Counted from the stretch's first letter, positions 1,287 through 19,059 are shown. The stretch: DNA of 64,000 bases from Nitrospinaceae bacterium UBA7883 (GCA_002500605.1 DLRR01000021.1:47866-111865); one strand, 5' to 3'. Program-made: numbers and translations. The notes: generated by a model from the sequence alone, not told the origin.

Positions 1287-1291
1287 ATCTA

Positions 1292-2065: not shown

Positions 2066-2067
2066 GA

Positions 2068-2946
2068 CTAATTGCCCTTCCCTGCACCAATAATTGTTTG
2101 AACTGCCATCTCAAGCTCAGATACCCTCATTCGTTCAGAGAGATCATCAGGCATTATGTCCGACTCAAACCCCATGGCTATATGCTCGTTGGGTTTTAGT
2201 ATTGATGTACGTATGTAATCTTCCAACGAGTAACCGGCCGGCAACTTGCCCTTATACTGCTCAGCCATATTGACTAGGCTTGGCCCCATATCGGGTTCTT
2301 CACCTTCCATGTCTACGTTTGGCACCACATGGCAAACTTTACATTCATATTTTTCAACCAACTGCGAAAAATCTTTTACTGGACCTGGGTCCTCAGTTTC
2401 ATCCTCTTCGTCCACATCTATCTCACCAATGGGCAAAGATACTGTAATGTCAATACCTGCAGCCTGTTGCAAATACGCTATGACTGCATTTATCTCAACT
2501 TCTGACAGATTTATTGATCCGGCTGAAACATCAGGCATAGGGCTTATAGTATCGCCTGATCCTGTTTTGCCAAACCCGACCACAACAAATGCAGAAGGTT
2601 TAATCATGGACTCTCTCAAGTATTCTTCTGCCGACTCTGCGTCACCTTTGTAACGCAAATCTTGCAGACGATCAGTTGATCTTACAGCCACAGGTTGTCC
2701 ATCGTCACTTGTCTCAATAAGAAGTGGTGCCCGGTGTCCAACAGCGTTATGGCAAAGCGGACAAGTCCCCTTACCTTCATATATTTTTTCCCCCAGTGCT
2801 GCATAACCTTCCAACGTCATCCCTTCAAGGGAAATTTCTTCCTCTGAGGGTGGCTGTGATTGCATCTGTGGAATACTGTTGGAAAACCACGTATATCCAT
2901 AAATCACCATTAAACTGAAGGCTAAAATTTGAAGCAATGTTTTCAT
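2068..2946 (-). CDS. Membrane-anchored diheme c-type cytochrome
   Basis: N-terminal hydrophobic helix, CPLCH and CKVCH motifs, SPMP and DIMP Met motifs; ATG overlaps the upstream stop. Confidence 0.85.
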   Translation of the reverse strand: MKTLLQILAFSLMVIYGYTWFSNSIPQMQSQPPSEEEISLEGMTLEGYAALGEKIYEGKGTCPLCHNAVGHRAPLLIETSDDGQPVAVRSTDRLQDLRYKGDAESAEEYLRESMIKPSAFVVVGFGKTGSGDTISPMPDVSAGSINLSEVEINAVIAYLQQAAGIDITVSLPIGEIDVDEEDETEDPGPVKDFSQLVEKYECKVCHVVPNVDMEGEEPDMGPSLVNMAEQYKGKLPAGYSLEDYIRTSILKPNEHIAMGFESDIMPDDLSERMRVSELEMAVQTIIGAGKGN

Positions 2947-4754
2947 TTGTCAGCTATTTTCCTTTTACTAAAGTCATCTAGCCAAAAAATGAACATAACC
3001 ATTGCCATGAATATCAACGTAGTCAAAGAAACTATTTTGGCTGCATAGCCAAGTGTTGGCGTAAATGCATCTGCTGAATAATCGCGAAAAACAGTGTAAA
3101 CATGCCAATGTTGTCTTATGCCAGAGCGAACGTAACCCATTAGACCCATCAGCCAAGTAAATGATATGGCAAGCAGAAACAGGGCGTATTGGGAACGAAT
3201 AGGCATTGCGCCCCATTTAGTCGGACCAATGGCCTTTGAGCCGCGGTAAATAAACGCATTTATCACGCTTGCTACAATAATAACCAGCAAAGTTGTGGAA
3301 ACCTGCGGAACCGAAAGGCCTATTCTGATGTTAGCCGGAATGTAATAGCCGTATACTCCTAGAATTATAATGTTTAAAGCACCTGCCACAAACATGGCGG
3401 TTATTGCCGCATTGCCTACATCCATCCATGTGACTGTTGGGATCTTCCCTGCCCGTTGATACAACATAAAGGCAAGGAAGGTGGTAAGTATCATTAGATT
3501 TACTGCAGTATTTTTTGCCGACATAACACCAAGCACGCCTAGAACTGGGTGATGGGCACCTCCAAGGGCTTTAATTTCTGACCCGGTCATAACAATCGTA
3601 TGCGGGGTAAACCATACAAGAAAACATGCTACCAACACGAAGGCCATATATTTAATAGCCTTTCGATACTTTTCACCCCCCGTTGCTCTACCCAAGCCAA
3701 TCCAAAGATAGTAATTTGCTCCAAGAAATAGGGCGCCGATGAGTAATGCCTGTATTATGAATAGCCACGCAAAAATCCCACCCATAAGCGTAATACCCAT
3801 CTGTTGACTATATGCGTACATCTCTTTGGTTAACCAATACCCTGCAAAAGGCAACGGTAAAAGCCCCACGATGGCAATGAAATTAGCTGTATAGCCCATC
3901 CAGTCATAGTGGGCCCTGTAATCGCTGGTTTTTGCAGTGAGAAACTTGTATGCGGCATATGCCCCCACTATCGAACCACCGTATGCAATGTTTGCTATAA
4001 AACGATGCAGGTTAACAGGATTCCAGAGTGGCCCTTTTATAACATCCCACACGTTCCCCAAAAACAACCCATCCGGGCTTACCCCAGAAGGCGCCATCAT
4101 AAATGTCGCCCAGGAATTTGAAAGAACCATCAACGTCATTCCTGCCACATTGAGCATAAGGCCAACAGTCAGGTGTGTCCATTTGCCTAATCCATCAGAT
4201 AAGGCCTCCCAGCCATAATAGTAAATATATAAACAAAGGCTTTCAGCAAAGAACATCAAAGCATATACAAACATCACTGGTTTAAATATCTTGAGCGAAT
4301 ACATTGTAAAATCGGGGTATAGTATTATGAGTAGAAATAGAAGGATCCCCCCCAGTGTTGCAGTAAACGAAAAGGCAACCATGCTTATCTTTATAAACTC
4401 ACGTGCCATATTATCGTAGCGCTTGTCGCCTGTTAAAACGCCTATTAGTTCTATAACTAGTACGAATATTGGAACACCAAGAACAAAGGCAGCAAAAAAC
4501 AGGTGCAGCTGAGCTACAATCCAGACAGCTACTCGACTTGAAAACCCAAATAACAGTGGATATGAATCTTCTGACAGTTTTGGTGCTGAAGCATAGAGTT
4601 CACTTTGGCTCGTTTCACTGGAAGATTGTGTTGAAGGCTGTACCTCTGTCGAAGCGGAAGTTAGTTCAGAAAAAGAAAGAATAATTACAAATACAAATAG
4701 GGCAAGTGCAGCAACATACGGTAGCCGATTAGCTGTCTCTTTTAGGTGCCTCAT
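2943..4754 (-). CDS. Cytochrome bd-like oxidase subunit I (CydA-like, Nitrospira/Nitrospina type)
   Basis: Polytopic membrane protein with AQLHLFFAAFVLG, NLHRFIAN and MGYVRSGIRQHWHVY motifs. Start moved from 4823 to ATG 4754, which overlaps the stop of the upstream small ORF (ATGA). Confidence 0.8.
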   Translation of the reverse strand: MRHLKETANRLPYVAALALFVFVIILSFSELTSASTEVQPSTQSSSETSQSELYASAPKLSEDSYPLLFGFSSRVAVWIVAQLHLFFAAFVLGVPIFVLVIELIGVLTGDKRYDNMAREFIKISMVAFSFTATLGGILLFLLIILYPDFTMYSLKIFKPVMFVYALMFFAESLCLYIYYYGWEALSDGLGKWTHLTVGLMLNVAGMTLMVLSNSWATFMMAPSGVSPDGLFLGNVWDVIKGPLWNPVNLHRFIANIAYGGSIVGAYAAYKFLTAKTSDYRAHYDWMGYTANFIAIVGLLPLPFAGYWLTKEMYAYSQQMGITLMGGIFAWLFIIQALLIGALFLGANYYLWIGLGRATGGEKYRKAIKYMAFVLVACFLVWFTPHTIVMTGSEIKALGGAHHPVLGVLGVMSAKNTAVNLMILTTFLAFMLYQRAGKIPTVTWMDVGNAAITAMFVAGALNIIILGVYGYYIPANIRIGLSVPQVSTTLLVIIVASVINAFIYRGSKAIGPTKWGAMPIRSQYALFLLAISFTWLMGLMGYVRSGIRQHWHVYTVFRDYSADAFTPTLGYAAKIVSLTTLIFMAMVMFIFWLDDFSKRKIADK

Positions 4755-4864
4755 GGTATCAGCGGTAGCCCTTGGACTTTCATAAGAAAAAAGTTGATAG
4801 AGTACAGCAATGCAGAAAAACATAAGAAAAAGGCAGCAAAGAAGCCTATCAATTTCCCATTCAT
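4751..4864 (-). CDS. Small single-pass membrane protein, 37 aa (MNGKLIGFFAAFFLCFSALLYSINFFLMKVQGLPLIP)
   Basis: Hand translated; G-rich RBS (ggtggggg) upstream; stop overlaps the CydA-like ATG; one hydrophobic helix. Confidence 0.65.
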   Translation of the reverse strand: MNGKLIGFFAAFFLCFSALLYSINFFLMKVQGLPLIP

Positions 4865-5013: not shown

Positions 5014-5072
5014 TTAATATTAACCCTCAATAATTCTTGATGATGTAAAGCAAATACTGTTCCTCAGACTTT

Positions 5073-5270
5073 AAAAATATCTATTTTTTTACATGTTTGA
5101 CTGACGAACCGCCAATTACCGATTTCAAATAGAAAAGTTTTCATATTGTTCCACAATAGAATAGTAAATGATAAAAAATATCTATTTTTTTACACGTTTA
5201 ACTGACGAACCGCTAATTGCTGATTCCAAACTGAACAGTTTTCATATTGTTCCACACTAGAATAGTAAAT
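5073..5270. repeat. Tandem direct repeat, two 97-bp copies with 101-bp period
   Basis: 5073-5169 vs 5174-5270, ungapped, 10 mismatches by manual count; lies in a divergent promoter region. Confidence 0.9.
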
Positions 5271-5383
5271 AATTTTGCAGGATGGTTAGAAACTGTCCAG
5301 CAAGAATCCTATTCTGGATATTTTGTTTTTCACTCCACACAGTAGTTGCACTAATCTTGATATCTGGAATAAACCAAGTTCTG

Positions 5384-5399
5384 GGGCATGGTAATTGCT
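5384..5399 (+). promoter_or_regulatory. Candidate sigma54 (-24/-12) promoter
   Basis: GGGCATGGTAATTGCT has exact GG-N10-GC spacing and TTGC but G instead of T at -26; about 170 bp upstream of ATG 5570. Confidence 0.4.
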
Positions 5400-5569
5400 G
5401 ATAGTAATGGAAGAGTTGTCTTTTTACTAGCGGTGAATAATTTTGTAATTACTCATCAACTAAAAAACAGCATTTGTTTTTACTACGTTGTAACGAGAAT
5501 TTTAGGTGTCGTTTTCCAGATAATTGGAATGTGGCATCTACAATTAAATTTTGTAAGGGAGAAGAAGGT

Positions 5570-6316
5570 ATGATTTCGCGAACAGCCTTGGTTGCAACTA
5601 TGGTGGCAACTTTGTTCTATTTATCTAGTGCGATTGCATATACAAAACAGGATGTGCCCAATGGTGGAGCCCTGTCTGGTAAAATAAGCTTCAATGGCAA
5701 AGTTCCAGATTCAATGAAAATTTCAATTGAAAAAAATCCTGAGGTTTGCGGCACTGGTGTCCGGGAAATCAAAGAAGTTACTGTTGATGGTAACGGAGGG
5801 CTGGAAAGTGCAGTTGTGTTTTTCAAGAAAGTTTCAGCGGGTAAACCATGGAACGTCCCAAATGGTGGTTGGCAACTTAACCAAAAAACTTGCACTTTTC
5901 TGCCCTGGGTTCAAGTTATTGAGGACAAAAGCGAATTAGAGGTGGTGAACCATGACCCGGTTTTACACAATATTCACACGTACGAACTTATACCTGCTGG
6001 CAAACGGGTCGTCAGAGTAACCATGTTTAATGAAGCACAGCCCACCCAGGGTTTTACTTTTAAGAAAAAGGTTAGGATGCGACGAGGTAACACTATAAAA
6101 GTAGAATGTGATGCTCATAATTTCATGCATGCCTACATGCTAGCTCTAAAGAATCCTTATTATGCCATCACATCCGCTGATGGAACTTATTCCATAGATA
6201 AGATTCCAGCCGGTAAGTACTCGGTTATAGTTTGGCACTCAAAACTTGGCGTGATCTCCAAAAAAATTGAAATTGGAAGTGGCGGTAAAGCTACCTTAAA
6301 CCATGAATACAAATAA
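5570..6316 (+). CDS. Secreted protein with carboxypeptidase-regulatory-like and cupredoxin-like domains; putative type-1 copper protein
   Basis: Signal peptide; HNIH plus CDAHNFM (C-x2-H-x2-M); C-terminal DGTYSIDKIPAGKY beta-sandwich motif. Start moved from 5474 to ATG 5570 (purine-rich RBS). Confidence 0.7.
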   Translation: MISRTALVATMVATLFYLSSAIAYTKQDVPNGGALSGKISFNGKVPDSMKISIEKNPEVCGTGVREIKEVTVDGNGGLESAVVFFKKVSAGKPWNVPNGGWQLNQKTCTFLPWVQVIEDKSELEVVNHDPVLHNIHTYELIPAGKRVVRVTMFNEAQPTQGFTFKKKVRMRRGNTIKVECDAHNFMHAYMLALKNPYYAITSADGTYSIDKIPAGKYSVIVWHSKLGVISKKIEIGSGGKATLNHEYK

Positions 6317-6402
6317 GTGGCTCACTAGCTGTTGTTAAACAGCCACGCCACGCTGATAGGAGCCCAATCTATCCCTCCCCCGATAGATTGGGTTTCGATC
6401 AT

Positions 6403-6438
6403 AACTGGACAGGATTGCTATCCTGTCCAGTTTTTTTT
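6403..6438 (+). terminator. Intrinsic terminator
   Basis: Perfect 12-bp stem aactggacagga/tcctgtccagtt with 6-nt loop, followed by a T run. Confidence 0.8.
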
Positions 6439-6637
6439 AACCGAGGGAGTACCAAAGTAGAAGCAAAACAACGGCAAGATTTATTGCCACACCTATGTGA
6501 AACCAAATATCGATCAACGAAAAGTTTCTGTTTCTCCACTTCCCTTTACCCATATAAAAGCCCCGTATGTTGATATATAATAGTTGTTACTGGTATTGTA
6601 AACTGAGCACGATAGCACTATCCTCATTATCTAACCA

Positions 6638-7360
6638 ATGAATCACTATAACAACAACAAAGACGAGACTCCGGGGTTAGCCCAAACACCACCTAAATGG
6701 CTCAAATGGTTTTTAATTCTCAATATCGTTTCCCTAGCAGGTTTAATGATGTGGGAACTGGGCTCTGCTGTGTATAAAAGTACGGACGAGATTACAGTTG
6801 AACTTCAAAAGAAAGCCGCACAAGTGGAACTAGCTACTTCACAAAATCCCAGCTCAAAGGATCTTGGTGCTGAACTTAGCGAAGAGATAGAGTATGTAAT
6901 CGATGCCACAAGTCCAAACAAATGGGTGCATTTCAACTTTTCCAATAGTTCGTGGTTCCAAAGTAGCTCAATTTCCAAAGAGCAGTTAAATTGGGATATA
7001 GCTATACGTAGGGCCAAGATAGTCACCAATAGTGGGATGACCTCACCAAAAGGGAAAGTGCTGGTGGCATCAGTAAACGCAACATCATTAAGCCAGGTTA
7101 GCAGGGCCCCAAAAAACGGATACGAGGCCGATATTATACCCGATGGAAGCATCGAAACTTCTAGCCCTATACTCGACAAGTGGTACAGATACGATTTCTG
7201 GACTCATAAGTTAAAACCAAAAAAGTTGGTTTATATTGTTAAAACATGGAACGAACGTTTGGCTAAGTTTATAATCGTCAGTTATTACTGTGAATCGGCT
7301 CCTGCCTGTTTCACCATAAGGTTTCAATATCAAGGCAACCTTAGCAACAGTCTAAACTAG
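6638..7360 (+). CDS. HmuY-family heme-binding protein with N-terminal membrane anchor
   Basis: WDIAIRRAKIVTNSG motif, YDFWTHKLKP and VYIVKT...AKFIIVSYYC C-terminal pattern; hydrophobic helix near the N-terminus. Confidence 0.7.
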   Translation: MNHYNNNKDETPGLAQTPPKWLKWFLILNIVSLAGLMMWELGSAVYKSTDEITVELQKKAAQVELATSQNPSSKDLGAELSEEIEYVIDATSPNKWVHFNFSNSSWFQSSSISKEQLNWDIAIRRAKIVTNSGMTSPKGKVLVASVNATSLSQVSRAPKNGYEADIIPDGSIETSSPILDKWYRYDFWTHKLKPKKLVYIVKTWNERLAKFIIVSYYCESAPACFTIRFQYQGNLSNSLN

Positions 7361-7554
7361 CGCACACTTGCTGGATACAATCTTTCCAGCATGGTAAGTT
7401 CATTGCCAGCCCGGAATTTCCAATTATCGTATTTCTTTGTTGATGACATGCAATGAAAGAAATGGGCACCAACAAGGGTTATCACCACTATAACCAGTGC
7501 TGTTTTAACTGCTGCCAAAAAACGTCCTTGTATTCCACGACCGAATAAAACCAG

Positions 7555-7571
7555 TTGGCATAATATTTGCG
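7555..7571 (+). promoter_or_regulatory. Sigma54 (-24/-12) promoter of the peroxidase/molybdoenzyme operon
   Basis: TTGGCATAATATTTGCG matches TGGCA-N6-TTGC with exact GG-N10-GC spacing, about 170 bp upstream of ATG 7740. Confidence 0.75.
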
Positions 7572-7739
7572 AATTGTATTCGCTGAATGAAAGTTATGTT
7601 TGGTTTGTAGGTTAGAAGTTAAACCATTTAAGCCTTGTATAGGGCTCTGTTTCTCCTCTTAAACCTAATTTTAACTTTTGAAATGTGGGGGCTGTTCTAA
7701 AGTCGCTACCCTTATTAAATGGCGCAGGGAGTTCGATTT

Positions 7740-8858
7740 ATGAAATTTTTTACTAACAAAATTTATAATTACTCAACTATTTTGATGGTGCTTGTAGTTG
7801 CAGTTCTATTCACCTCTGTACAGTCACAAGCATCTGACATCGGCCCCTTGCCGAAATTAAAAATTGACGCCGTCAAAGCAAAACTTGGTAAAGCGTTATT
7901 TTTCGACCCACGACTTTCCGGGGATTCGGCAATTAGTTGCGGCACTTGCCATGACCCAAAAGAGGGTTGGACAAAACATGTCGCGGTGGGTGATGCATAT
8001 CCCGGGAGTAAACATTTTAGAAATGCACCAACGATACTTAACACAGCTTACAAAAAAACTCTTGGCATTCCTTGGCATTGGGATGGTCGAATTGGAACTT
8101 CGTTAAATGACATGACTCGCGACCAAATCACAGACACATATGTGATGAATATGGACATGCGGATCATGCAGGAGCGCCTAAAGCAGGTGCCTATGTACGT
8201 GAAGTTATTCAAACAAGCTTATGGAAAAGAGCCATCCAACGGGTTAGTACGAAAGGCAATTCCAGAATTTTTAAAAACTGTTGTCTCAAAAAATGTGCCT
8301 TTTGATAAAGGCACACTTTCACCCGAACAAAAACAAGGCATGGAGCTTTTCAAAGGAAAGGCCGGATGTATAAGTTGCCATAATGGTCCTATGTTCTCAG
8401 ATGGGTTACCACATAACACTGGCGTCCCTGAGAACGCGGATATTTTTAAAAATCCACAGCGTCATGTCACATACCTTACCTTCATGTATGGTCTTGGAGT
8501 CCAGAATAGGCTTAACTGGCGACGTGATGTTGGCTATTTTACTGTTAGCCATAATGAAAATGACCTTGGCAAGTTCATCACGCCAACCCTGAGAGAACTC
8601 AAATATACAGCACCATACATGCACAATGGCATGATAGGGACCTTAGAAGATGTAATTGAGTTCTACAACAAGGGTGGTGGAAAAGACCGACCAGGGCTAA
8701 AGGACTCAGCGATGAAGCCTTTAAAACTTACGAAGTCGGAAAAAAAGGCATTAAAAACGTTCTTACTTTCCTTGTCTGGTGATAACCCATCGATTGATGT
8801 TGGCAAGCCAGACCTTTCTTATCCTGTAATCGCTAACTGGTATAAAACCAAGAATTAA
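7740..8858 (+). CDS. Diheme cytochrome c peroxidase/MauG-family protein (IdrP-like, first copy)
   Basis: Signal peptide, LFFDPRLSGD..SCGTCH, RNAPT, CISCHNGP, TAPYMHNG. Start moved to ATG 7740 (agggag RBS). Confidence 0.9.
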   Translation: MKFFTNKIYNYSTILMVLVVAVLFTSVQSQASDIGPLPKLKIDAVKAKLGKALFFDPRLSGDSAISCGTCHDPKEGWTKHVAVGDAYPGSKHFRNAPTILNTAYKKTLGIPWHWDGRIGTSLNDMTRDQITDTYVMNMDMRIMQERLKQVPMYVKLFKQAYGKEPSNGLVRKAIPEFLKTVVSKNVPFDKGTLSPEQKQGMELFKGKAGCISCHNGPMFSDGLPHNTGVPENADIFKNPQRHVTYLTFMYGLGVQNRLNWRRDVGYFTVSHNENDLGKFITPTLRELKYTAPYMHNGMIGTLEDVIEFYNKGGGKDRPGLKDSAMKPLKLTKSEKKALKTFLLSLSGDNPSIDVGKPDLSYPVIANWYKTKN

Positions 8859-8872
8859 GTAAAGGAGGAAAT

Positions 8873-10060
8873 ATGTTCAAGGGTAATTATTGGCTTGCAC
8901 TTGTAATCGCAGCCACTTTTATATCTGTAGCCTCCTTGACTGCAGTTCCAGTTTTCGCAGCTGGTGATCCAGATTTTGATCCGCCGTTAGTGCCACTTCC
9001 AGCTCACCCTCCCATTCCAGCGGATAATAAGTCATCTACCGCTATTTACCCAGCCAAGATGGGACCAAAGCAGGAGTTGGGCTATTTGCTATTTTTCGAT
9101 CCCAAACTAACTGGGGATGCTTCTTTATCATGCGGTACATGTCACCATCCGGACACTGGCTGGGGTTTTAATGACCCGATAAGCAGGGGATATCCTGGTA
9201 CGGTACATTGGAGAAATTCCCAAACAATAGTAAATACTGGTTATTTTCATAAACTGTTTTGGGCTGGTTCAGTTACGAGCCTAGAGTCCCAAGCTCCGGC
9301 TGCAAATAAAGGAGGGGTCGCTGGTAACGGGGAAGATGACATGATGGAATCAAGACTCCAAATGACACCAGAGTACCGTCAACGGTGGAAGGAAGTTTTC
9401 GGTTACGATCGGCCTTTGATTAAGGATGCATGGCGGGCTATAGCCGCTTTTGAGCGTTACATGTCCCAGACTGACACTCCTTATGACAGCTTCCTTAAGG
9501 GTGACAACAAAGCTCTCACGGCTTCGCAAAAACGTGGCCTCGAGTTGTTTAAAGGAAAAGCGAACTGTGTTGAGTGCCATAACGGTCCTATGCTAACCGA
9601 TGAAAAGTACTACAACTTAGATGTTCCTAATCCGGTGGAATGGACCGAATCAGGTCTTGCTCAGATTAGTTATCGCTTTGAAATTTACGCAAAAGGTGTG
9701 ACTGAAAAGCTTTATCGCGAATCCAAGCATGACCTTGGAGCATATTTCCGTGGTAAAAACCCACAGGACATAGGCAAGTTTCGCACAGCAACCCTTCGTT
9801 ATCTGAGTTATTCAACTCCATTTATGCATAACGGGGCTTTCTTCACCCTAGAGGAAGTTGTAGATTTCTACAACGAAGGCGGAGGGGAAAGTGATCTGCT
9901 GAACACAAAAACTAAAATTCTGAAACCATTGAACCTCACAGATGATGAGAAAGCAGATCTTGTGGAGTTTCTTGGTTCTATGAGTGGAGAAGAGATTAAG
10001 CTTCCATTTCCAAAGATTCCACCTATAGCAGCATTTGATGACTGGCAACCAAAAAAATAA
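8873..10060 (+). CDS. Diheme cytochrome c peroxidase/MauG-family protein (IdrP-like, second copy)
   Basis: aaggagga RBS, signal peptide, LFFDPKLTGD..SCGTCH, CVECHNGP, GKFRT, TPFMHNG. Confidence 0.9.
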   Translation: MFKGNYWLALVIAATFISVASLTAVPVFAAGDPDFDPPLVPLPAHPPIPADNKSSTAIYPAKMGPKQELGYLLFFDPKLTGDASLSCGTCHHPDTGWGFNDPISRGYPGTVHWRNSQTIVNTGYFHKLFWAGSVTSLESQAPAANKGGVAGNGEDDMMESRLQMTPEYRQRWKEVFGYDRPLIKDAWRAIAAFERYMSQTDTPYDSFLKGDNKALTASQKRGLELFKGKANCVECHNGPMLTDEKYYNLDVPNPVEWTESGLAQISYRFEIYAKGVTEKLYRESKHDLGAYFRGKNPQDIGKFRTATLRYLSYSTPFMHNGAFFTLEEVVDFYNEGGGESDLLNTKTKILKPLNLTDDEKADLVEFLGSMSGEEIKLPFPKIPPIAAFDDWQPKK

Positions 10061-10062
10061 CT

Positions 10063-10089
10063 AAAGCGCATGGCTTATCCATGCGCTTT
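10063..10089 (+). other. Intergenic stem-loop
   Basis: Perfect 11-bp stem aaagcgcatgg/ccatgcgcttt with 5-nt loop and no long T tail, between the peroxidase and Rieske genes. Confidence 0.7.
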
Positions 10090-10120
10090 GTAAAGATAAT
10101 CTAAATGTTTGAGGTGACAT

Positions 10121-10642
10121 ATGAGTGAAACAGAGATGGGAAAAGGCGCTTGTGCAAATAGGCGCGAATTCCTCCTAAGCGGCGGTATTACTGCTGCAAT
10201 GATGATGCTTGGGACAAAACCTATGATGGCTGAGGCCAAGGTGGTCGGATACCCAAGAAAGAAAATTGGCAAGCTAAGCAGGCTCAAGTCTGGAAGGCCA
10301 ATTGATTTCAACTACCCTGATGAAGATTCTGAAAATATATTAATAAAGCTTAGCAAACCAGCTGGTGGTGGTGTTGGTAAAAATGCCAATGTTGTTGCAT
10401 TCAACAAGCTCTGCACGCATATGGGTGGAACTGTTACGGACGGTGGATACCACCATTCAGATGCTGTTGCAGGCCCTTGCCCTTTTCACCTTTCAACGTT
10501 CGATCTTTCGCGCCATGGAATGATTGTGGCTGGACACGCTACGCAGAGCCTGCCACAAATTCAGTTGGAGGTGAAGGGAGATGATATTTATGCCGTCGGC
10601 GTAATGGGGCTTATTTACGGCCGAAACAAAAACCTTGGCTAA
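10121..10642 (+). CDS. idrB: Rieske [2Fe-2S] small subunit of AioB/IdrB type with TAT signal
   Basis: NRREFL twin-arginine signal, CTHMG and CPFH Rieske boxes, GHATQSLPQI..LEV..DDIYAVGVMGLIYGR AioB-like C-terminus. The symbol rests on gene context. Confidence 0.85.
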   Translation: MSETEMGKGACANRREFLLSGGITAAMMMLGTKPMMAEAKVVGYPRKKIGKLSRLKSGRPIDFNYPDEDSENILIKLSKPAGGGVGKNANVVAFNKLCTHMGGTVTDGGYHHSDAVAGPCPFHLSTFDLSRHGMIVAGHATQSLPQIQLEVKGDDIYAVGVMGLIYGRNKNLG

Positions 10643-10665
10643 TAATACATAAGGAAAGATTGATC

Positions 10666-13410
10666 ATGAGCATTACAAAATTTAGTACCAAAGATACAGT
10701 GCCAATACCGCCATCAGACGCCGACGTTCTTACAACCGCATGTGACTATTGTGTAGTAGCATGCGGATACAAAATATACAGATGGCCTGTTGGCAAAGAG
10801 GGTGGAACCAAAGCAAAACAAAATGCCTTAGGTGTTGACTACCCAGTTTCACCTTTGTCGGGTAAATGGATAGGTCCAAACCAGCATAACGTTGCTTTGT
10901 ATAACGGTAAACTTCACAACGTTGTTGTCCTCCCTGATGGCGATGCAGAAGCTGTCAACCTTTCCGGTGATCATTCCATCCGAGGTGGCGCTATATCACA
11001 ACGTTGTTACAACCCTAATTCCCCAACACACGACCGGCTCAAAAGTCCGTTAGTCCGGGTAAACGACACTTTAATGCCTGTCGACTGGGACACTGCACTG
11101 GATGTATGTGCTGAACTGTCAAATTACACTATAAATAAATTCGGTGAGCAAGCATGGGCTCAAAAAACTTTTTCATACGAGTTTTATGAGAACACATATG
11201 CCCTAACCAAGTTTGCCAGACGCTATATTAATACACCTGCCTGGGCACCACACGATCAGCCTGGCCCAGGGAGCGCTACTGCTGGGTTCCGAGATACTGG
11301 TTTTGAAAACTTTGCTCCATCCTATTGGGACTGGGGTAACTCAGAAGTTGTGTTTATATCTGGTACTGACCCATATGAAACTAAGACTGTTCTTTTCACC
11401 GAATGGTTTTTACCAGCTGTACGCAACAGAGGACAAAAGCTAATTTTTGTCCTTCCAAGAAAAACTACTGGTGCTGCTTTCGCCGAAAAGAACGGTGGCT
11501 TATTCTTGCAGATCACACCAGGCACCGATACAGTTTTGCAATTGGCCATAAGTCGGTACATAATTGAAAAAGGGTGGCAAGATAAAGAGTGGATAAATAA
11601 ATGGGTAGCCAATAAGTGGGAAACTGACAGCGGGTTTGGTCAAGGTACTAGGAATACACCATGGCAATGGCGTACCACTTGGGGCAAGTTTCAAACCAAG
11701 GGATTTGATGACTACAAGAAGTGGCTATTCTCTCAAAAAGAGGCGGAAATGGCTACAGCCTCAAAGATTACTGGCATTCCTGCTTCCAAGATAAAAGCTG
11801 CCGCTACCATGATGGCCAAACCCAAGGCAGATGGCAGCCGAGTCAAAACTTCCATCGGGATCGAAAAAGGTAACTACTGGTCTAATAATTATCTCAACAC
11901 CACATCTGTAGCTGCTATGGCAGTTATTCTCGGAGCTGGCGGCCGGCCCGGGCAGGTTGTTGGTCGTTTTGGAGGTCATCAGCGTGGTGGAATGAGCGGT
12001 GGAGGATACCCGAGATCTAAGTCGCCCGAGAAACAAGAAGGTAGACGCAAAAAGCCAATTGATCTTGATCGTTGGTTTGTTTCTGGGCACGTGCGTTTTG
12101 CTCATGTTGTTGGTACCACATGGACATCAGCCATGGGTGGAACACAATCAATTCAAAGTATGTTTAACAAGCTTACTAGGAAAAACCCACACCAGATTAA
12201 ATCCCGCAAGAAAGAAGAAATTATTGACTCCCTTAAAAAGCGCATGGATAGCGGTGGGACTGTTGTTGTTAACCAGGATATTTATCTGCGTGACCCCATT
12301 GGAGCAAAATACGCAGATATAGTCCTTCCGGCTTCTGGCTGGGGAGAAGATGATTTTGCCAGAAACAATGGTGAAAGGCGTTTGAGGCTATACTCAAAGT
12401 TCATGGATGCCCCAGGATTAGCCAAACCCGACTGGTGGATTGTGGGTCAATGGGCTACTAAAATGGGTTTTAAAGGCTTTAACTGGAAAAACTCAAATGA
12501 AGTATTTGAGGAGGCGGCCCGATTCAGCAGAAAGGGTATACGTGCGTATCACAACCTTGTGTTCATGGCAAAGAAAAATGGAATAAAGGGCCACGAAGCG
12601 CTACGCAAGTTTGGTACCAAGGGAATTCAAACGCCAATCTTAATGGTGCCTAAAGAGTGGAAAGAGAACCGTCCTGGGCAGCAGTATGTTAGTGCCGAAA
12701 CTGGGCTTACGTGGAATGGCTATAAATTAGCTGGGACAGTTAGGGCTCATGATACAGAAAGGGTAATGCCAGAGACCGGTCCTGCTGTGACCACAGTGTG
12801 GCCTAAATGGCTTACGCATTTCAACTCACAGTCAGGCAAACTAAACATGCTGAAATCACCATGGAATCTTTTTTCCGATTTTTACGATGAAATCTCTCCT
12901 AAAGGTGATGAATTATGGATCACCAACGGTAGAATTAATGAAGTATGGCAATCGGGATTTGACGACATGGAAAGAAGACCAATGATCATGAAAAGGTGGC
13001 CCGAGAATTGGATTGAAATTCATCCTGACGATGCAAAATCGAGAGGCATTGAAAGTGGTGACTATGTGATGGCTTACAGCAACAGGGTGCCTGTTCAGAA
13101 AGATTACAACCAAGCATCCCATCCAGGCGATTTTCAATACTCTACATTGAAAAAGAATGGGCATATTAGGTTTGACTCTGCCTCTATCACTGGTGTAGCC
13201 ATTGTCACTTCAGTCGTCAAGAAGGGAACGAGTTGGACATATTTCTTACATCCGGAACAGTCTGCCAACAGCCTCGTAGCTATGGTTCCGGACCCAATTA
13301 CCAACCGCTACAGATTCAAGCTTGGAGTAGGCAAGATTAAAAAACTTGGAGAATCTCCTTATAAGAACAGCTTTGATTCGATGAGTTTTGCCAGGCGTGA
13401 TATAGTTTAG
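10666..13410 (+). CDS. idrA: DMSO-reductase-family molybdoenzyme large subunit, arsenite-oxidase-like (AioA/IdrA), most likely iodate reductase type
   Basis: CDYCVVAC (C-x2-C-x3-C, [3Fe-4S] type), HSIRGG, EKGNYW, RFGGHQ, NGRINEVWQS, IEIHPDDA; no own signal peptide; flanked by Rieske and two peroxidase genes. Start at ATG 10666 (TTG 10660 possible). Family confident, substrate inferred. Confidence 0.85.
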   Translation: MSITKFSTKDTVPIPPSDADVLTTACDYCVVACGYKIYRWPVGKEGGTKAKQNALGVDYPVSPLSGKWIGPNQHNVALYNGKLHNVVVLPDGDAEAVNLSGDHSIRGGAISQRCYNPNSPTHDRLKSPLVRVNDTLMPVDWDTALDVCAELSNYTINKFGEQAWAQKTFSYEFYENTYALTKFARRYINTPAWAPHDQPGPGSATAGFRDTGFENFAPSYWDWGNSEVVFISGTDPYETKTVLFTEWFLPAVRNRGQKLIFVLPRKTTGAAFAEKNGGLFLQITPGTDTVLQLAISRYIIEKGWQDKEWINKWVANKWETDSGFGQGTRNTPWQWRTTWGKFQTKGFDDYKKWLFSQKEAEMATASKITGIPASKIKAAATMMAKPKADGSRVKTSIGIEKGNYWSNNYLNTTSVAAMAVILGAGGRPGQVVGRFGGHQRGGMSGGGYPRSKSPEKQEGRRKKPIDLDRWFVSGHVRFAHVVGTTWTSAMGGTQSIQSMFNKLTRKNPHQIKSRKKEEIIDSLKKRMDSGGTVVVNQDIYLRDPIGAKYADIVLPASGWGEDDFARNNGERRLRLYSKFMDAPGLAKPDWWIVGQWATKMGFKGFNWKNSNEVFEEAARFSRKGIRAYHNLVFMAKKNGIKGHEALRKFGTKGIQTPILMVPKEWKENRPGQQYVSAETGLTWNGYKLAGTVRAHDTERVMPETGPAVTTVWPKWLTHFNSQSGKLNMLKSPWNLFSDFYDEISPKGDELWITNGRINEVWQSGFDDMERRPMIMKRWPENWIEIHPDDAKSRGIESGDYVMAYSNRVPVQKDYNQASHPGDFQYSTLKKNGHIRFDSASITGVAIVTSVVKKGTSWTYFLHPEQSANSLVAMVPDPITNRYRFKLGVGKIKKLGESPYKNSFDSMSFARRDIV

Positions 13411-13457
13411 CCCTTATTACTATAGCTTGAAAGCCGGCAGAATCCTTTATTTGGATT

Positions 13458-15536
13458 TTGTCGGCTAATCTAGCTATCTACTGTTTTAATCTGGCATTAA
13501 ATCAAATGCTAACCTTTGATGGAGCAACAGTGTCTCTAAGAAAAGATATCGCCATTCTAGTAAACAATTTTTTGTCATCAAAAAATTTTTACACACGATT
13601 TTATGCCACTAAAACACTTGGGAGTCTTGCCCCTCATATCAATCAGAATTCTTTGATTAACATTGCAACTGACAACAAAGAGGATATAGATTTGCGGATT
13701 GAGGCACTAGAAGGAATTTACCAGTGTGGCAAAGATGCCGATACTTCGGGAATAGAAAAACTGCTATTCGACCCTGAAGGCGATATACGGGTAAGTGCTG
13801 CTAAAACCATTGGGGCTACTGGAAAGGATCAGTCTGTCGATATATTACTTAAAGCTTTAGCCGATGATGGGGATGGTTACAGCTATGACGAAGAGTTTGA
13901 CTGGGACCCACAATGGGACGTGCAACTAGAGCTCATAAAAGCTCTGGGAAACCTTGGTATGGCAAAATCAGCAGAACCCATCATAAGGTTTTATGAACAA
14001 GAAGGAGGGGTCGATATTGGTGAAACAGTTTTTACGGCACTTCAATCTATAGGCGGCTCAGCTGTGGTAGATTTTTTTTCTAGAATGCTTTCTAACGGCA
14101 TCCCAGCAGAGCGTCGGATGACATGTGAGATGATTGGCGAAACTGGTTTTCACGAGATGAAAGATTCTTTGTCTTCTGTTTTACTTGATGCAGACCCACT
14201 GGTAAGGGCAGCAGCAGCAAAGGCTCTAGCCCTGGTTGGGGGTGAAGATGGAAAAGTAAGTCTTGCCTTGTTACTTCGCGATTCCAACGACATGGTTGTT
14301 TGTTCGGTTTTGGAAGCGATGGAAGAAAATGGACTACTCTCAGGGATTGAAGAATCAATTAAACCACTACTCGATCACGATTCATTAACTGTTAAAACAG
14401 TTGCTTTAAAGGTGCTAGGTGGATTGCCCAATGTAGATGTTTCCGATAAAGTTACCGGGTACTTAGGGCCAGATGCAAGTGATGAACTAATCCTAGTCGC
14501 TAGTGAAGTAATGGCTAAGTCATCGTCAAAAGAATTTAAGCCACTTCTGCTTGACCTAATTAAAAATCAAGACAAAGAACCGCTTTTACGTCTTGGGTTA
14601 ATAGAACTATATGAAAAATTTTATAAAAACCATGTTGCAAAAGACTTAACTGAGCTGCTTCAAACTGGACCAAGACAAGTATCCATAGCCATTGCCGCCG
14701 CCATAGCAAAATGCGGTGATAATGAATCTTTAGATTCTTTATGCGAGTTGCTTTGGATGAAAGATTCAGATTTACCAATAAACCAAATCGACAACCGGCT
14801 TGACAAATCCAACAGCACTAATGAACTTGGTAAGGACGTTGAAATGATAGGCGGTAAGAAGGCAGTTCTGAACCCTGGGGCCACTCCTGGTGGGTTACAG
14901 CCAGAAGACCTAATCCTTATCCTCACAGGCTGTATGTCTGAGAATGTGGTAAAAAATATGGTGTTGCTTGCACAGTCTGACAATCCAGAACTAGCGTCAA
15001 AAGCCATTGCTGCACTAGGGGAAATTGGTATCAACCCCGGTGAAGACAAAGTGCGTGCAATTATTGCACAATCAGACCCAAAGATAAGGGCACAGGCAGT
15101 ATATGTTGCTGGGAAACTCAGTATCGTTTTAGATCTTGTAGCCGAAAGACTGATGGTAGATTATGATGAAAATGTCCGCGAAAAATCCGCTAATGCAATA
15201 GCCTTTGCTGGTAAAATTGAAGGAATTACAGCCTTATCGGAAGGCCTAAATGACCCCTCTTTACAAGTGAGGAAAGCGTGTATAAAAGGTCTTGGTTTAA
15301 TCAATAACGACGATGGTTGCCTTAATATTCTTATAAATGCTCTCTTTGATCGTGAACATTTTGCCGACTTAACAGACGATATATGTAATTCGTTATCCAA
15401 ATTTGATCCAGAATCCGTGAAAAGGGCCTTGGTTTCAGTGCTCACTGACCCTTCCAAAGAAGACTTGCATTGGATAGCTTTAGATGCTTTGGGAAAAGTT
15501 TTTGGAACTAGTGTTGATAAAATAATTAACACTTAA
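13458..15536 (+). CDS. HEAT-repeat (PBS lyase-like) protein
   Basis: Repeated VR..AA.ALG / L...L.D patterns over about 690 aa; start uncertain (TTG 13458 or a later ATG). Confidence 0.8.
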   Translation: MSANLAIYCFNLALNQMLTFDGATVSLRKDIAILVNNFLSSKNFYTRFYATKTLGSLAPHINQNSLINIATDNKEDIDLRIEALEGIYQCGKDADTSGIEKLLFDPEGDIRVSAAKTIGATGKDQSVDILLKALADDGDGYSYDEEFDWDPQWDVQLELIKALGNLGMAKSAEPIIRFYEQEGGVDIGETVFTALQSIGGSAVVDFFSRMLSNGIPAERRMTCEMIGETGFHEMKDSLSSVLLDADPLVRAAAAKALALVGGEDGKVSLALLLRDSNDMVVCSVLEAMEENGLLSGIEESIKPLLDHDSLTVKTVALKVLGGLPNVDVSDKVTGYLGPDASDELILVASEVMAKSSSKEFKPLLLDLIKNQDKEPLLRLGLIELYEKFYKNHVAKDLTELLQTGPRQVSIAIAAAIAKCGDNESLDSLCELLWMKDSDLPINQIDNRLDKSNSTNELGKDVEMIGGKKAVLNPGATPGGLQPEDLILILTGCMSENVVKNMVLLAQSDNPELASKAIAALGEIGINPGEDKVRAIIAQSDPKIRAQAVYVAGKLSIVLDLVAERLMVDYDENVREKSANAIAFAGKIEGITALSEGLNDPSLQVRKACIKGLGLINNDDGCLNILINALFDREHFADLTDDICNSLSKFDPESVKRALVSVLTDPSKEDLHWIALDALGKVFGTSVDKIINT

Positions 15537-15715
15537 CAATGTCAAAGTCCACTCATTCAAATATCATTCTAAATCTGTAAAAGCCGGTATTCTTTTGATC
15601 AACATTGTAAAGACTGGCAAATTTATTTCCAAAGTGCCAATAAATTGTCCAGCCTACAATTTTTTTCCAATGTCCTTGATATAAAAAATTTCCGAGCTTC
15701 TACTGTTCAAGAATT

Positions 15716-17089
15716 CTAATTAAAGTCCGCATCGGCACATTTCTTAAGTTTTTCTCTTAGTGTTACTCGAGAAATCCCAAGCAGACGGGCAGCCTCCGAT
15801 TTGTTCCCATCAAAGTGATTCACAACACTTTGAATATATTTAGCTTCTACCTCTTCTAGTGAAGTCCAATTGTCGCGTATTGAAAAAAGCTCTGCACTAT
15901 TATTTTTTACGAGATTAAAGCCAGAATCAGGCAAAAGATCTTTGCGAGTTATTATATTTGTTTTAGTTAAGATATAGGCACGCTCAATCATGTTTTTTAG
16001 TTCCCTTATATTCCCAGGCCAAGCATAGTTTTTTAATAGCTCAATAGCATCGTTATCAAAATCGATAACATCTTCTTTCATTGTGCTTTTAAACTGGGAT
16101 AGAAAGTGTCTGGCTAAATGCGGAATGTCATGTACGCGCTCACGCAAAGGGGGCACCAAAATAGTGAAAACATTGAGCCTGTAAAGTAGGTCTGATCGAA
16201 ATTGGTTTTGCTGGATTTTAACACTGAGTTCCTGGTTGGTAGCTGAGATAACTCTAATATCAATTGCTATATCTTTTGTCCCACCAAGCTTGCGAAGCGA
16301 ACGTGATTCTAAGACACGAAGCAACTTGGGCTGAAGTGAAATGGCTAGGTCTCCAATTTCATCTAAAAAAATAGTGCCTGTGTGGGACAACTCGAAAATA
16401 CCAGCTTTACTGGTTTTTGCATCTGTAAAGGCTCCTTTTGCATGCCCAAAGAGCTCCGATTCTAAAAGGGTTTCAGGGATTGATGAGCAGTTTATTTTTA
16501 ATAAAGGCTTGTCTTTACGGGAAGAAATGTTATGTATAGCGTCTGCTACCAACTCTTTACCTGTCCCACTCTCGCCCAAAATCAAGACATGGGTATTGTC
16601 TGTCCTGGCTACTTGACTAATCTGGTCCTGAATACGTTTTATTGGGTCACTGTTTCCAACCATCCCAAAATCTTGGCGCCTAGAGTCTCGCTCGTAACGA
16701 AGGGAAGCAATTTCAGACTTAAGTGTTTCAACTTCAAAAGCTTTATTCACAATTATCCGAAGTTCATCAAGCTCAAATGGTTTGTTGATATAGTCATAAG
16801 CCCCTTGCTTCATTGCCGTTACTGCAGTCTTAATCTCTGGATACGCAGTCATAAAAATACAAAGAACCTGGTCGTCGATCTCCTTCACCCTAGCTAACAC
16901 ATCAAGTCCCGACATGTCGGGGAGGTTAAGGTCAAGGAGCATAACCTTAACAGGTTTATTATTAATTACTTCTATTCCGGCAGCACCGTTACCTGCTTCA
17001 AACACTGTAAAGCCAGCTTTTCTAAAAACGTGGCTCAAAGTTTCGAGCATTGTTTGGTCATCTTCTACGATAAGAAGTTCTTTACTCAT
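15716..17089 (-). CDS. Sigma54-dependent response regulator (NtrC/AtoC family)
   Basis: Receiver (LIVEDD, LLDLNLP), GESGTGKE Walker A, GAFTDA loop, FLDEIG, WPGNIRELKN, C-terminal Fis HTH. Start 17089 overlaps the kinase stop (TGATG). Confidence 0.95.
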   Translation of the reverse strand: MSKELLIVEDDQTMLETLSHVFRKAGFTVFEAGNGAAGIEVINNKPVKVMLLDLNLPDMSGLDVLARVKEIDDQVLCIFMTAYPEIKTAVTAMKQGAYDYINKPFELDELRIIVNKAFEVETLKSEIASLRYERDSRRQDFGMVGNSDPIKRIQDQISQVARTDNTHVLILGESGTGKELVADAIHNISSRKDKPLLKINCSSIPETLLESELFGHAKGAFTDAKTSKAGIFELSHTGTIFLDEIGDLAISLQPKLLRVLESRSLRKLGGTKDIAIDIRVISATNQELSVKIQQNQFRSDLLYRLNVFTILVPPLRERVHDIPHLARHFLSQFKSTMKEDVIDFDNDAIELLKNYAWPGNIRELKNMIERAYILTKTNIITRKDLLPDSGFNLVKNNSAELFSIRDNWTSLEEVEAKYIQSVVNHFDGNKSEAARLLGISRVTLREKLKKCADADFN

Positions 17090-19059
17090 CAAGACTCTTT
17101 TGAATAAGTTTTTGGAAGTAATATCATCAATGTAGTTCCCCATCCTTCTTTTGAATAAACTTGTATTGTGCCCATGTGCTGGTCGACGATTCTATGGACA
17201 ACAGATAACCCAAGGCCTGTACCATCGGGTTTGGTTGAATAAAATGGATCGAAAATCTTTTCCACGCTACCACCGGGTATCCCATGCCCAGTATCACATA
17301 CAGAAATCTCTATAAATTCCCTGTCGTCTGACGAGACCGATTCTTTATTAGTAGTAGTAAAACATGTGTCCCTCAGTTCACAGCAAAAATGCTCATCACC
17401 TGTACGTACAGAGATGTTAATGGCTCCACCATTAGCCGTTGCTTGAATCGAATTTAAAATCAGGTTGACTATTACCTGCTTTATTTGCTGGGGATCAACC
17501 ATGACATTATTCAGATTGTCCTCAAAAACCTCGTTGAGTTCAATTTTCTTTTCTTTTGCTTGAATTTTTAGAAAAAACACAACATCGCGCACAAGTTCAC
17601 AAATATCACATGGAGCTAGATCAATATCCCTAATAACCGCAAAGTTATTGAATTTTTTAAGAAAACTATTAAGCCTGTCTACTTCAGAAACAATCTTTGC
17701 AAAATGACTAGATTTATCTGTGTGATATTCTGTCTCCTCAGAAAGCGCCTGCGCCACTGTTTTGATAGATGCCAAGGGGTTGCCAATCTCATGTGCAAGA
17801 CCCATTGAAAGCTCACCTAGTGAAGCTAGTTTATCCTGTTTATAAAGTTCCCTTTCTAGCTGTCTAATCTCTGCAACTGAGTTTCGCAGTTCTTCCTCCT
17901 TAGTGGCATTGGCACTCAATAATGAAGCCTGATGACTTTTAAGCTGGAGTTTCATTCTGTTATAGCGACTAACAAGGTCTTCAAGCTCATCTCCAGTTCT
18001 GACGTCTAGAGTACTGTCCATTTGTCCCTCCGCAACCAAAAGCACATCTTCAGACAATGCCTCGATCGGCCTAGTAAAGCGTCTTCCAAAGAAAACCGCT
18101 GCAAGTACAGCGAAAACTGCGGCTCCAAACAGGGCTATCATTAAGTTAAGTGTAAAAACATTCAGTTTGGGATCAAAGTGTGATTTCGGTAGTACCGTAA
18201 CCAGTCGCCAAGGTGGAAGGTTAAAGTTGCCGTCATCTTGAATAAAGAAGTTCGCTAAAACAACATCATCTAAATTAACAATTGTGTTGCCTTCCATCAG
18301 ATTTTGCTTATTAAGGGAAGGATAAAGTTCTTTAAAGCTTACCCCAGAGTTAACATTCACGGGGACTTTCAGCTCATTATTGTTCTTTTCAGTATGTATA
18401 ATCACCCCGTTCTCATCTACCAGGAAAGTTGTAAATGGAGTGCCTGGAAGTTGCATCCATTTAAAAAATTGTTTTGCAAACATATTGAGAACCACTATCC
18501 CCTGTTTTCTTTCGTTGTAATAAACAGGTGTTACAATTCGAATTACCATTTGTTTTGGTAATTCAAGTTTGCCGTGCTCCAAATTAAAGTCCATGGCGGA
18601 AAAGTAAACAGAGCCTTTTTTTATGGTTACGCCCTTTTGGAAATAGTATCGATTCCCTTTATATTGGAGGTTGGCTTCTGGGGTTAGGAAAAATAAATTG
18701 TTTCTGAAGTTAGACCTTATAACCTCATGTCCCAAATCACCAAGATACCTAACCTGATAGTACTCTGGCCTGCTTTTGCTAAACTCTAAAACTTCTCGTT
18801 TGGCATTTATTATGTTCGCAGGTGCATATGAAACCATTTCTGATAGATATGTAACGTCTTTTACCACCCTGCGAAGATTGTTTTGTATCTGGATTTTTTG
18901 CAGATTGGCGCTGGCTTGTAAACTTGAAGTGGAGCTAGTTTCAAGTGTGTTTAATGTCATTGCAATTCCAATTACGCTCACCACCACAATTGGAATTAGG
19001 CAAACACCTAGAAACACTAGGATTAGTTTGGCGGTAATACCTATTCTTGGAAGTTCCAT
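17089..19059 (-). CDS. Sensor histidine kinase with large periplasmic (Cache-like) domain and HAMP
   Basis: Two TM helices about 270 aa apart, HAMP (RPI..L...V..G.L...GDELEDL), AHEIGNPL H-box, N, DTGHG and GTGLGL boxes. Confidence 0.93.
   Translation of the reverse strand: MELPRIGITAKLILVFLGVCLIPIVVVSVIGIAMTLNTLETSSTSSLQASANLQKIQIQNNLRRVVKDVTYLSEMVSYAPANIINAKREVLEFSKSRPEYYQVRYLGDLGHEVIRSNFRNNLFFLTPEANLQYKGNRYYFQKGVTIKKGSVYFSAMDFNLEHGKLELPKQMVIRIVTPVYYNERKQGIVVLNMFAKQFFKWMQLPGTPFTTFLVDENGVIIHTEKNNNELKVPVNVNSGVSFKELYPSLNKQNLMEGNTIVNLDDVVLANFFIQDDGNFNLPPWRLVTVLPKSHFDPKLNVFTLNLMIALFGAAVFAVLAAVFFGRRFTRPIEALSEDVLLVAEGQMDSTLDVRTGDELEDLVSRYNRMKLQLKSHQASLLSANATKEEELRNSVAEIRQLERELYKQDKLASLGELSMGLAHEIGNPLASIKTVAQALSEETEYHTDKSSHFAKIVSEVDRLNSFLKKFNNFAVIRDIDLAPCDICELVRDVVFFLKIQAKEKKIELNEVFEDNLNNVMVDPQQIKQVIVNLILNSIQATANGGAINISVRTGDEHFCCELRDTCFTTTNKESVSSDDREFIEISVCDTGHGIPGGSVEKIFDPFYSTKPDGTGLGLSVVHRIVDQHMGTIQVYSKEGWGTTLMILLPKTYSKES

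Follow-up and report, generated by a model that had tools for sequence, protein, structure and literature searches.

A Cache-domain kinase/NtrC-type regulator pair, tandem dyads and sigma-54-type boxes in an idr island of a marine Nitrospinota-like bacterium

The control of iodate reductase (idr) genes was analyzed in a 64,000-nt stretch of Nitrospinaceae bacterium UBA7883 (the window; positions are counted from its first letter), which derives from an uncultured marine Nitrospinota-like bacterium. To our knowledge none of the components that control idr (sensor, regulator, promoter, operator) has been defined so far. A first-pass annotation had proposed that a sigma-54 promoter and an adjacent kinase/NtrC pair constitute a dedicated regulatory system of an Idr-like operon. 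We describe here the elements found at this locus, their conservation, their co-occurrence with regulator type across idr loci and the transcript boundaries in natural samples. On these elements, a kinase with a double-Cache (dCache) sensor domain and an NtrC-type regulator probably switch the idr operon together with two neighbouring electron-transport operons through sigma-54 promoters.

The idr-type operon and the kinase/regulator pair

The operon and the genes that follow it are arranged as listed below:
7740-8858, plus strand: IdrP1-like di-haem cytochrome c peroxidase (PF03150, 132 bits), with a signal peptide at start ATG 7740
8873-10060, plus strand: IdrP2-like di-haem cytochrome c peroxidase (PF03150, 128 bits)
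10121-10642, plus strand: IdrB-like Rieske small subunit (TIGR02694, 137 bits)
10660-13410, plus strand: IdrA-like molybdopterin large subunit (TIGR02693, 420 bits)
13458-15536, plus strand: HEAT-repeat protein gene (692 aa), between idrA and the regulator gene
15716-17143, minus strand: NtrC-type response regulator, 475 aa (REC PF00072, 98 bits; Sigma54_activat PF00158, 221 bits; HTH_8 PF02954, 56 bits)
17089-19059, minus strand: sensor histidine kinase, 656 aa, with a transmembrane segment, a periplasmic dCache domain (DNA 18172-18954), a second transmembrane segment, HAMP, HisKA and HATPase

The cluster joins AioAB-like genes to two cytochrome c peroxidase genes, the arrangement by which idr clusters are recognized (Reyes-Umana et al., PMC8692401), and judged by gene content it is an idrABP1P2 iodate reductase cluster. 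The gene order P1-P2-B-A was kept in 78 of 80 homologous reference-genome loci, including those of Roseovarius and Thalassovita (Litorimicrobium) taeanensis; Litorimicrobium (now Thalassovita) taeanense is among the idr carriers listed in PMC8692401. The IdrA-like protein was 75% identical to a protein of a Nitrospinota metagenome-assembled genome and 57-58% identical to the 'arsenate reductase (azurin)' of the idr clusters of Roseibium, Roseovarius and Thalassovita taeanensis, and solved AioA structures gave a partial match only (264 bits). HEAT homologues were found downstream of idrA in 51 of the 80 loci. An HmuY-like gene (6638-7360), lying between a cupredoxin gene and idrP1, was found only in the window and in L001 (loci are denoted by L and a number).

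The kinase and regulator genes converge on the end of the operon, as the first-pass annotation had described (15716-19059, minus strand). Since the kinase stop codon overlaps an internal ATG of the regulator gene (TGATG), the true regulator start is probably M19 at 17089, translationally coupled to the kinase. The pair scored best, below cut-off, against the AtoS/AtoC NCBIfam models. No gene for an AioX-type binding protein was found among the open reading frames (ORFs) of at least 170 aa scanned between about 5.5 and 22 kb, in agreement with the earlier remark that AioX is missing nearby. The closest related pair (L081; kinase 43% and regulator 57% identical) lies on a 522-kb contig that also bears an idr operon. 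A description of the L081 pair as idr-less was considered and rejected, the operon lying 13 kb away behind two CydA-like/cytochrome c modules and outside the first 10-kb flank.

Promoter box, dyads and transcripts

Upstream of and across the operon the following were identified:
7372-7408, no strand assigned: tandem dyads TGGATACAATCTTTCCA (7372-7388) and TGGTAAGTTCATTGCCA (7392-7408), 20 bp apart, candidate enhancer (upstream activating sequence) of the idr promoter
7556-7571, plus strand: sigma-54-type -24/-12 box TGGCATAATATTTGCG, GG and GC spaced 10 bp, predicted transcription start site (TSS) about 7582
7611-13417, plus strand: transcribed unit idrP1-idrP2-idrB-idrA, a single 5,807-nt RNA contig at depth 34 (metatranscriptome run X16)

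A sigma-54 promoter reads TGGCAC-N5-TTGCW, with GG and GC 10 bp apart and the TSS about 12 nt past the GC. The -24/-12 box reported by the first-pass annotation upstream of the first peroxidase gene was present at 7555-7571 (TTGGCATAATATTTGCG), 184 nt before the idrP1 start ATG 7740. Its window context (accagTTGGCATAATATTTGCGaattg, 7555-7571) reads as TGGCAT-N5-TTGC, and the single departure of TGGCATAATATTTGCG from TGGCAY-N5-TTGCW is the final base, G instead of W. In the two genomes closest to the window, L001 and L161, boxes were found 183 nt (TGGCATTTTAATTGCT) and 151 nt (CGGCATTTTAATTGCT) before idrP1; the three promoter regions were too diverged for a global MAFFT alignment of the boxes and were compared by motif scans. 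The loose box pattern with at most one mismatch occurred at 10 sites in the window, against 6.2 expected, and the box is not significant by itself; its weight comes from conservation, co-occurrence with regulator type and RNA data. This lack of enrichment and the final G would favour a chance match, the operon being read from a sigma-70-type promoter or by read-through. We regard this explanation as so improbable as to be nearly negligible, since position and sequence of the box are kept in both relatives, its presence co-occurs with regulator type (see below), a sigma-70 consensus scan of the plus strand over 7431-7739 gave no candidate, and RNA is lacking immediately upstream. A literature search on Nitrospina and rpoN found nothing.

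Nine public metatranscriptomes (marine and hydrothermal-vent, from several studies) contain this sequence. The earliest 5' edges of the idr RNA contigs were at 7611 in run X16 and at 7642, 7652 and 7665 in other runs, and 3' edges fell at 13412-13417 in four runs. RNA over 6504-7505 was absent in eight of the nine runs (zero depth in X16), X27 having one small contig (7180-7355) in the HmuY-like gene, and no RNA contig covered 7394-7610 in any of the nine. Read-through from the upstream HmuY-like gene is therefore excluded, and the contigs confine the idr promoter to 7394-7611, in keeping with a start near 7582. Past 13417 the depth dropped about eight-fold over the HEAT gene, from 34 to 3-5, and the HEAT gene was rejected on this drop as a fifth member of the operon; in X16 the HEAT, regulator and kinase genes had depth 3-6.

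Some substitutions recurred among the RNA runs: eight of the nine carry C>T at 7868, and fewer carry C>G at 9490 or A>G at 10343. The transcripts thus come from a strain that is closely related to the assembled one without being identical to it. A small GC-rich hairpin with a T-rich run lies at 7631-7646 in the idr 5' untranslated region, about 50 nt past the predicted start; it is possibly an attenuator or a stabilising stem-loop.

The relation between box and regulator was compared across 160 related loci, with a background rate of 0.025 boxes per kb per strand. Full-length orthologues of the regulator adjoin idr in 10 of the 80 genome loci (43-51% identity), belonging to Nitrospinota, groundwater 'Deltaproteobacteria', Calditrichaceae, Lentisphaeria, Latescibacterota, Desulfobacterales and Myxococcota, and in 15 loci when metagenomes are included (43-57% identity). 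The 15 distinct loci with an NtrC orthologue had a GG/GC-spaced box before the first gene of the operon, with at most one mismatch in 13 and two mismatches in 2. By contrast, seven loci have this sensor but no NtrC orthologue paired with it, and none of them had a box with at most one mismatch; the regulator there was shown to be NarL-type in five (by Pfam or clustering) and inferred to be so in the other two. Most alphaproteobacterial loci had no box before idrP1, and two hits with at most one mismatch, far upstream (in L017 and L033), look like chance matches. In the genome set alone boxes were present in 6 of 10 loci with the NtrC orthologue versus 6 of 60 (Fisher p = 0.001). These counts support the view that sigma-54-type boxes track regulator type across idr loci, and the conservation of the box at 7556-7571 supports its role as the putative idr promoter. 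The linkage of the pair with idr homologues raised in the first-pass annotation thus extends over many phyla, together with sigma-54 boxes, but is lineage-specific: Alphaproteobacteria and the NarL-coupled Nitrospinota and Methylomirabilota differ.

The tandem dyads lie 148-184 bp upstream of the idr box, and the same layout precedes the idr boxes of L001 and L161. The 17-bp motif TGGWWA-N5-TWWCCA was searched as tandem dyads 20-21 bp apart, with at most three mismatches in total, over 2.41 Mb; it gave six matches, each in an idr island and followed 100-230 bp downstream by a sigma-54-type box, those of L161 and L091 having turned up after the motif had been defined. Regulators with the helix SR[VL]TLR pair with TGGWWA/TWWCCA (the window, L081/L161, L005, L006, L007, L091 and L136), and those with ARQHLRKK pair with GATACCA repeats instead (L038 and L077). 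The dyads at 7372-7408 are likely the enhancer of the idr promoter, and we infer that the adjacent regulator binds them and that transcription uses sigma-54. The 8-bp inverted repeat (7399-7406/7450-7457) previously suggested as an enhancer does exist, but it has no conserved counterpart in L001 or L161, and it reaches into the second dyad with its left arm only. A one-mismatch dyad (TGGCAAATTTATTTCCA) was also found at 15615-15631, in the intergenic stretch on which the HEAT and regulator genes converge with their 3' ends; with a background of 0.05 per kb it could be a chance occurrence or an extra binding site.

The sigma-54 promoters could also be real and yet be driven by an enhancer-binding protein encoded elsewhere, the pair controlling something else, for example only the bd-like module or the DUF420/Usp genes. 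The pair is convergent with idr and 8 kb from its promoter, in the closest relative it ends bd-like operons 13 kb from idr, and next to the pair the Usp/PCP_red gene has a sigma-54-like box (TGGTATATTATTTGCT, at 19837) in front of it, all in favour of such an arrangement. However, in 10 genome and 3 metagenome loci a regulator orthologue is the immediate upstream neighbour of the box-bearing idr operon, recognition helix and dyad type co-vary, and no dyad was found upstream of the 19837 box, which makes control from elsewhere very unlikely. The 19837 box falls within the 3' end of the DUF420 ORF, 55 nt before the Usp+Usp+PCP_red gene (to 21082), which has homologues near the sensor kinase in L111, L136 and L153.

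Several observations weigh against control of the idr promoter by the adjacent pair. The canonical loop contacting sigma-54 is GAFTGA, and the L1 loop of the regulator (around residue 235) is GAFTDA. The same GAFTDA occurs in L005, L007, L038, L077, L091, L128 and L136, all with sigma-54-type boxes, and the variants GAYTDA, GAFTSA and GSFTDA occur in the same idr-linked, box-bearing regulator clade. To the convergent orientation and the 8-kb distance must be added the regulators of L005, L007 and L077, which have no adjacent kinase. The dyad motif was partly derived from sequences that were later scored, and no consensus for integration host factor was found between the dyads and the box. Finally, the RNA evidence consists of assembled contigs without strand or exact 5' ends, and the contig edges are 25-30 nt past the predicted TSS, so that a processing site is conceivable.

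A putative respiratory island beyond idr

Similar elements occur further upstream of the idr promoter:
3-4823, minus strand: CydA-like/di-haem/mono-haem/di-haem+EB_dh cytochrome operon, linked to idr
5049-5064, minus strand: sigma-54-type box AGGAACAGTATTTGCT, facing the bd-like/cytochrome c operon; kept as AGGTACAGCTTTTGCT (L001) and GGGTACAGCTTTTGCT (L161)
5263-5299, no strand assigned: second tandem dyad pair, TAGTAAATAATTTTGCA and TGGTTAGAAACTGTCCA, between two divergent sigma-54-type boxes
5384-5399, plus strand: sigma-54-type box GGGCATGGTAATTGCT before the cupredoxin gene; kept as CGGTACGATACTTGCT (L001) and AGGTACAGTAATTGCC (L161)
5570-6316, plus strand: secreted cupredoxin with a C-terminal beta-sandwich, from its copper ligands and AF2/Foldseek
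6403-6432, plus strand: intrinsic terminator of the cupredoxin transcript, a 13-bp stem then a T-run; an RNA contig ends at 6415

Equivalents of the second dyad pair were found in L001 (4667/4687) and L161 (7609/7629). Since the same dyads and boxes precede the cupredoxin gene and the bd-like/cytochrome c operon, the kinase/regulator pair looks like a switch of the whole island. The term 'dedicated' used in the first-pass annotation was too narrow, the pair being probably not dedicated to idr. A 101-bp tandem duplication (copies 89% identical) occupies 5073-5273 of the divergent intergenic region, next to the second dyad pair.

The cupredoxin gene product had a Pfam match in its C-terminal part only (CarboxypepD_reg/fn3_3). 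Its type-1 copper ligands H133, C180, H183 and M186 (C-x2-H-x2-M) are invariant, and the AF2 model (pLDDT 90) had amicyanin and plastocyanin as best Foldseek matches. In run X16 the cupredoxin RNA contig was monocistronic (981 nt, 5435-6415) and started 25 nt past the TSS predicted from the 5384 box. The gene lies directly before idrP1 in most non-alphaproteobacterial loci, and the protein is likely the electron carrier of the island and the donor to Idr. Linkage of the CydA-like/cytochrome operon to idr was seen in 14 genome loci out of 80 and in 5 metagenome loci (including L001, L005, L025, L029, L042, L073 and L161), where its usual place is directly behind idrA or the HEAT gene; instead of being an oxidase, it may oxidise quinol and feed the electrons into the Idr chain.

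In four phyla a Porin_5 gene is the first after the box, followed by the cupredoxin gene and idrP1P2BA (L007 3292-4389, L009 5100-6188, L019 5057-6193 and L025 5175-6383). This outer-membrane porin is a possible candidate for the iodate entry channel.

In the proposed circuit the kinase (17089-19059) and the regulator (15716-17089) would form a two-component system. A periplasmic signal would lead to phosphorylated regulator on the TGGWWA-N5-TWWCCA dyads at 7372-7408, where it would activate sigma-54 RNA polymerase at the 7556-7571 box, giving an idrP1-idrP2-idrB-idrA transcript that starts near 7582 and ends just past idrA. From the second dyad pair (5263-5299) the same regulator would most likely fire both the cupredoxin promoter at 5384 (plus strand) and the CydA-like/cytochrome c/EB_dh promoter at 5064 (minus strand). 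The unit so controlled would be a respiratory island comprising electron input, carrier, Idr enzyme and peroxidases.

The sensor domain, related systems and implications

The kinase's own periplasmic domain, put at about 270 aa in the first-pass annotation, is real and spans about 260 aa, from residue 36 to residue 296 of the kinase. Its AF2 model (pLDDT 82.7, pTM 0.80) folds as a double-Cache (Foldseek 3LID, E=2.7e-16, TMq 0.77); it matched PF21623 with 41 bits (cut-off 27) and PF02743 with 29 bits, under the cut-off of 45. The fold is that of double-Cache sensors such as vpHK1S-Z8 (3LID), 2P7J and the chemoreceptors Mlp24, Tlp3 and PctA, with a long N-terminal helix and membrane-distal and membrane-proximal PAS-like modules, although identity was only 12-18% and the PctA-type amino-acid-binding motif was not evident. 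Invariant residues of the membrane-distal module include several Arg, Lys and Tyr plus acidic residues.

Kinases with a homologous sensor domain (23-36% identity) were found in nine of the 80 genome loci. Most sensor-bearing idr loci have a HAMP-HisKA output with an NtrC-type regulator, L002 (Nitrospinota) and L029 (Methylomirabilia) have GAF-HisKA_3 with NarL-type regulators, and L079 (a gammaproteobacterium) has PAS-HisKA with an NtrC-like regulator. NarL- and NtrC-coupled sensors were intermixed in a well-supported clade (98/92; L029 with L038-type sensors). The sensor domain thus appears to stay beside idr while its output module swaps among NtrC, NarL and PAS types. The sensor hidden Markov model (HMM) matched no kinase in alphaproteobacterial idr loci, and the sensor is therefore not universal to idr. 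Rhodobacteraceae loci (L037, L023 and L041) have a PAS hybrid kinase of about 850 aa and a divergent OmpR-type regulator, and those of Roseibium and Pseudovibrio (L014 and L031) a divergent Crp/FNR-type regulator, indicating that idr regulation was re-invented several times.

A word-indexed search with the sensor region gave 4 matches and was replaced by a metagenome scan and a full HMMER search. The latter returned 9,799 representative clusters with a threshold of E<=1e-3; tightening it to E<=1e-30 left 5,496. The metagenome contig scan with the sensor alignment gave more than 560 relatives, of which nine of the best 80 had idr within 10 kb, many contigs being too short to judge linkage. Among the 10 best relatives in a cluster look-up only uncultured lineages and no cultured iodate reducer were found. 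In a tree of 72 sensor domains, 15 of 19 idr-linked rows fell in one 23-row subtree.

Roseovarius azorensis responds to 0.1 uM iodate with idr induction, which has also been reported in Pseudomonas SCT and Azoarcus DN11 (PMC11445184). By likeness to these bacteria iodate is the leading ligand candidate; the regulator type of R. azorensis differs from that of the window pair. Linkage to idr is what speaks for direct iodate sensing by the dCache domain, which is rather doubtful given the large sensor family and the family-wide conservation of its polar residues. It is also quite possible, though not quite probable, that the circuit is wired as proposed and the dCache domain senses a general cue (another oxyanion, a redox-active or peroxide-related compound, or a metabolite indicative of low-oxygen water), the genes forming a multi-purpose low-oxygen island. 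The size of the family is in line with a general cue, as are relatives beside multihaem cytochromes, HD-GYP/receiver proteins and chemotaxis genes and the bd-like oxidase-type module in the apparent regulon. Nearly all conserved polar residues (Q102, R104, E112, R115, Q132, K134, R137, Y138, Y139, S154, D157, N159, E161, E166 and R174) are shared family-wide, and only Y101 and M156 mark the idr-rich subtree; part of this conservation, however, is artificial and stems from the two motifs with which the loci were retrieved. Against a general cue stand also the iodate induction cited above, the retention of idr linkage through changes of output and the grouping of most idr-linked sensors in one subtree. 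The narrowest version of iodate control, in which the idr-linked dCache subfamily is a direct periplasmic receptor for iodate or HOI that was re-plugged into NtrC/sigma-54, NarL and PAS outputs beside idr, is unlikely.

The circuit type itself is ordinary. AioXSR and RpoN control the arsenite oxidase genes aioBA in Rhizobium NT-26, Agrobacterium and Herminiimonas (PMC7533571, PMC6011840, PMC5908839), and there too a kinase and an NtrC-type activator lie beside an AioAB-family operon with a -24/-12 promoter. A further likeness is that in AioXSR the enzyme substrate is the inducer, iodate as ligand of the window sensor being hypothetical. Unlike AioXSR, the window kinase has its own dCache domain, no AioX-type gene was among the scanned ORFs, the enzyme cluster is idr-type with two di-haem peroxidases, and the regulon seems to reach the cupredoxin gene and the bd-like/cytochrome c operon. 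By this analogy the circuit would work like AioXSR/RpoN but, being without AioX and having its own dCache sensor, it is not a member of AioXSR.

The statement in the first-pass annotation that no regulator of idr clusters was known holds in so far as none has been characterised, but Sasamura et al. (2023, PMC10149662) had already noted genes annotated atoS/atoC upstream of the idrABP1P2 cluster of Azoarcus sp. DN11. As in the window, a sensor kinase and a sigma-54-dependent regulator adjoin idr there, and the DN11 cluster is experimentally iodate-inducible; PMC10149662 describes no promoter, binding site or sensor domain for DN11. The dCache-GAF-HisKA_3/NarL systems (L002 and L029; Methylomirabilota and some Nitrospinota) share a homologous periplasmic sensor and the idr neighbourhood, but their output is a sigma-70-type NarL regulator and they have no sigma-54 box.

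To what was known the present analysis adds a candidate promoter, an operator consensus, an extended regulon, the output-swapping of the sensor and transcript boundaries in situ. The locus gives a concrete putative circuit: a sensor domain, three candidate promoters, an operator consensus of 17 bp, and transcript boundaries seen in natural samples. The island beyond idrABP1P2 (cupredoxin and CydA-like/cytochrome c) suggests an electron route to Idr outside Proteobacteria. Transcripts of the operon are present in many marine and hydrothermal metatranscriptomes, so that Nitrospinota-like bacteria may be reducing iodate in situ, which bears on alternative oxidants in oxygen-deficient zones (PMC8114937, PMC11373643). 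If the receptor reading were true, this would be the first iodine-oxyanion sensor; marine Nitrospinota would switch on a chain from the CydA-like quinol module through cytochromes c and cupredoxin to IdrAB and the peroxidases in low-oxygen water, and the circuit would make the proposed iodate-dependent 'anaerobic' nitrite oxidation accessible to genetics.

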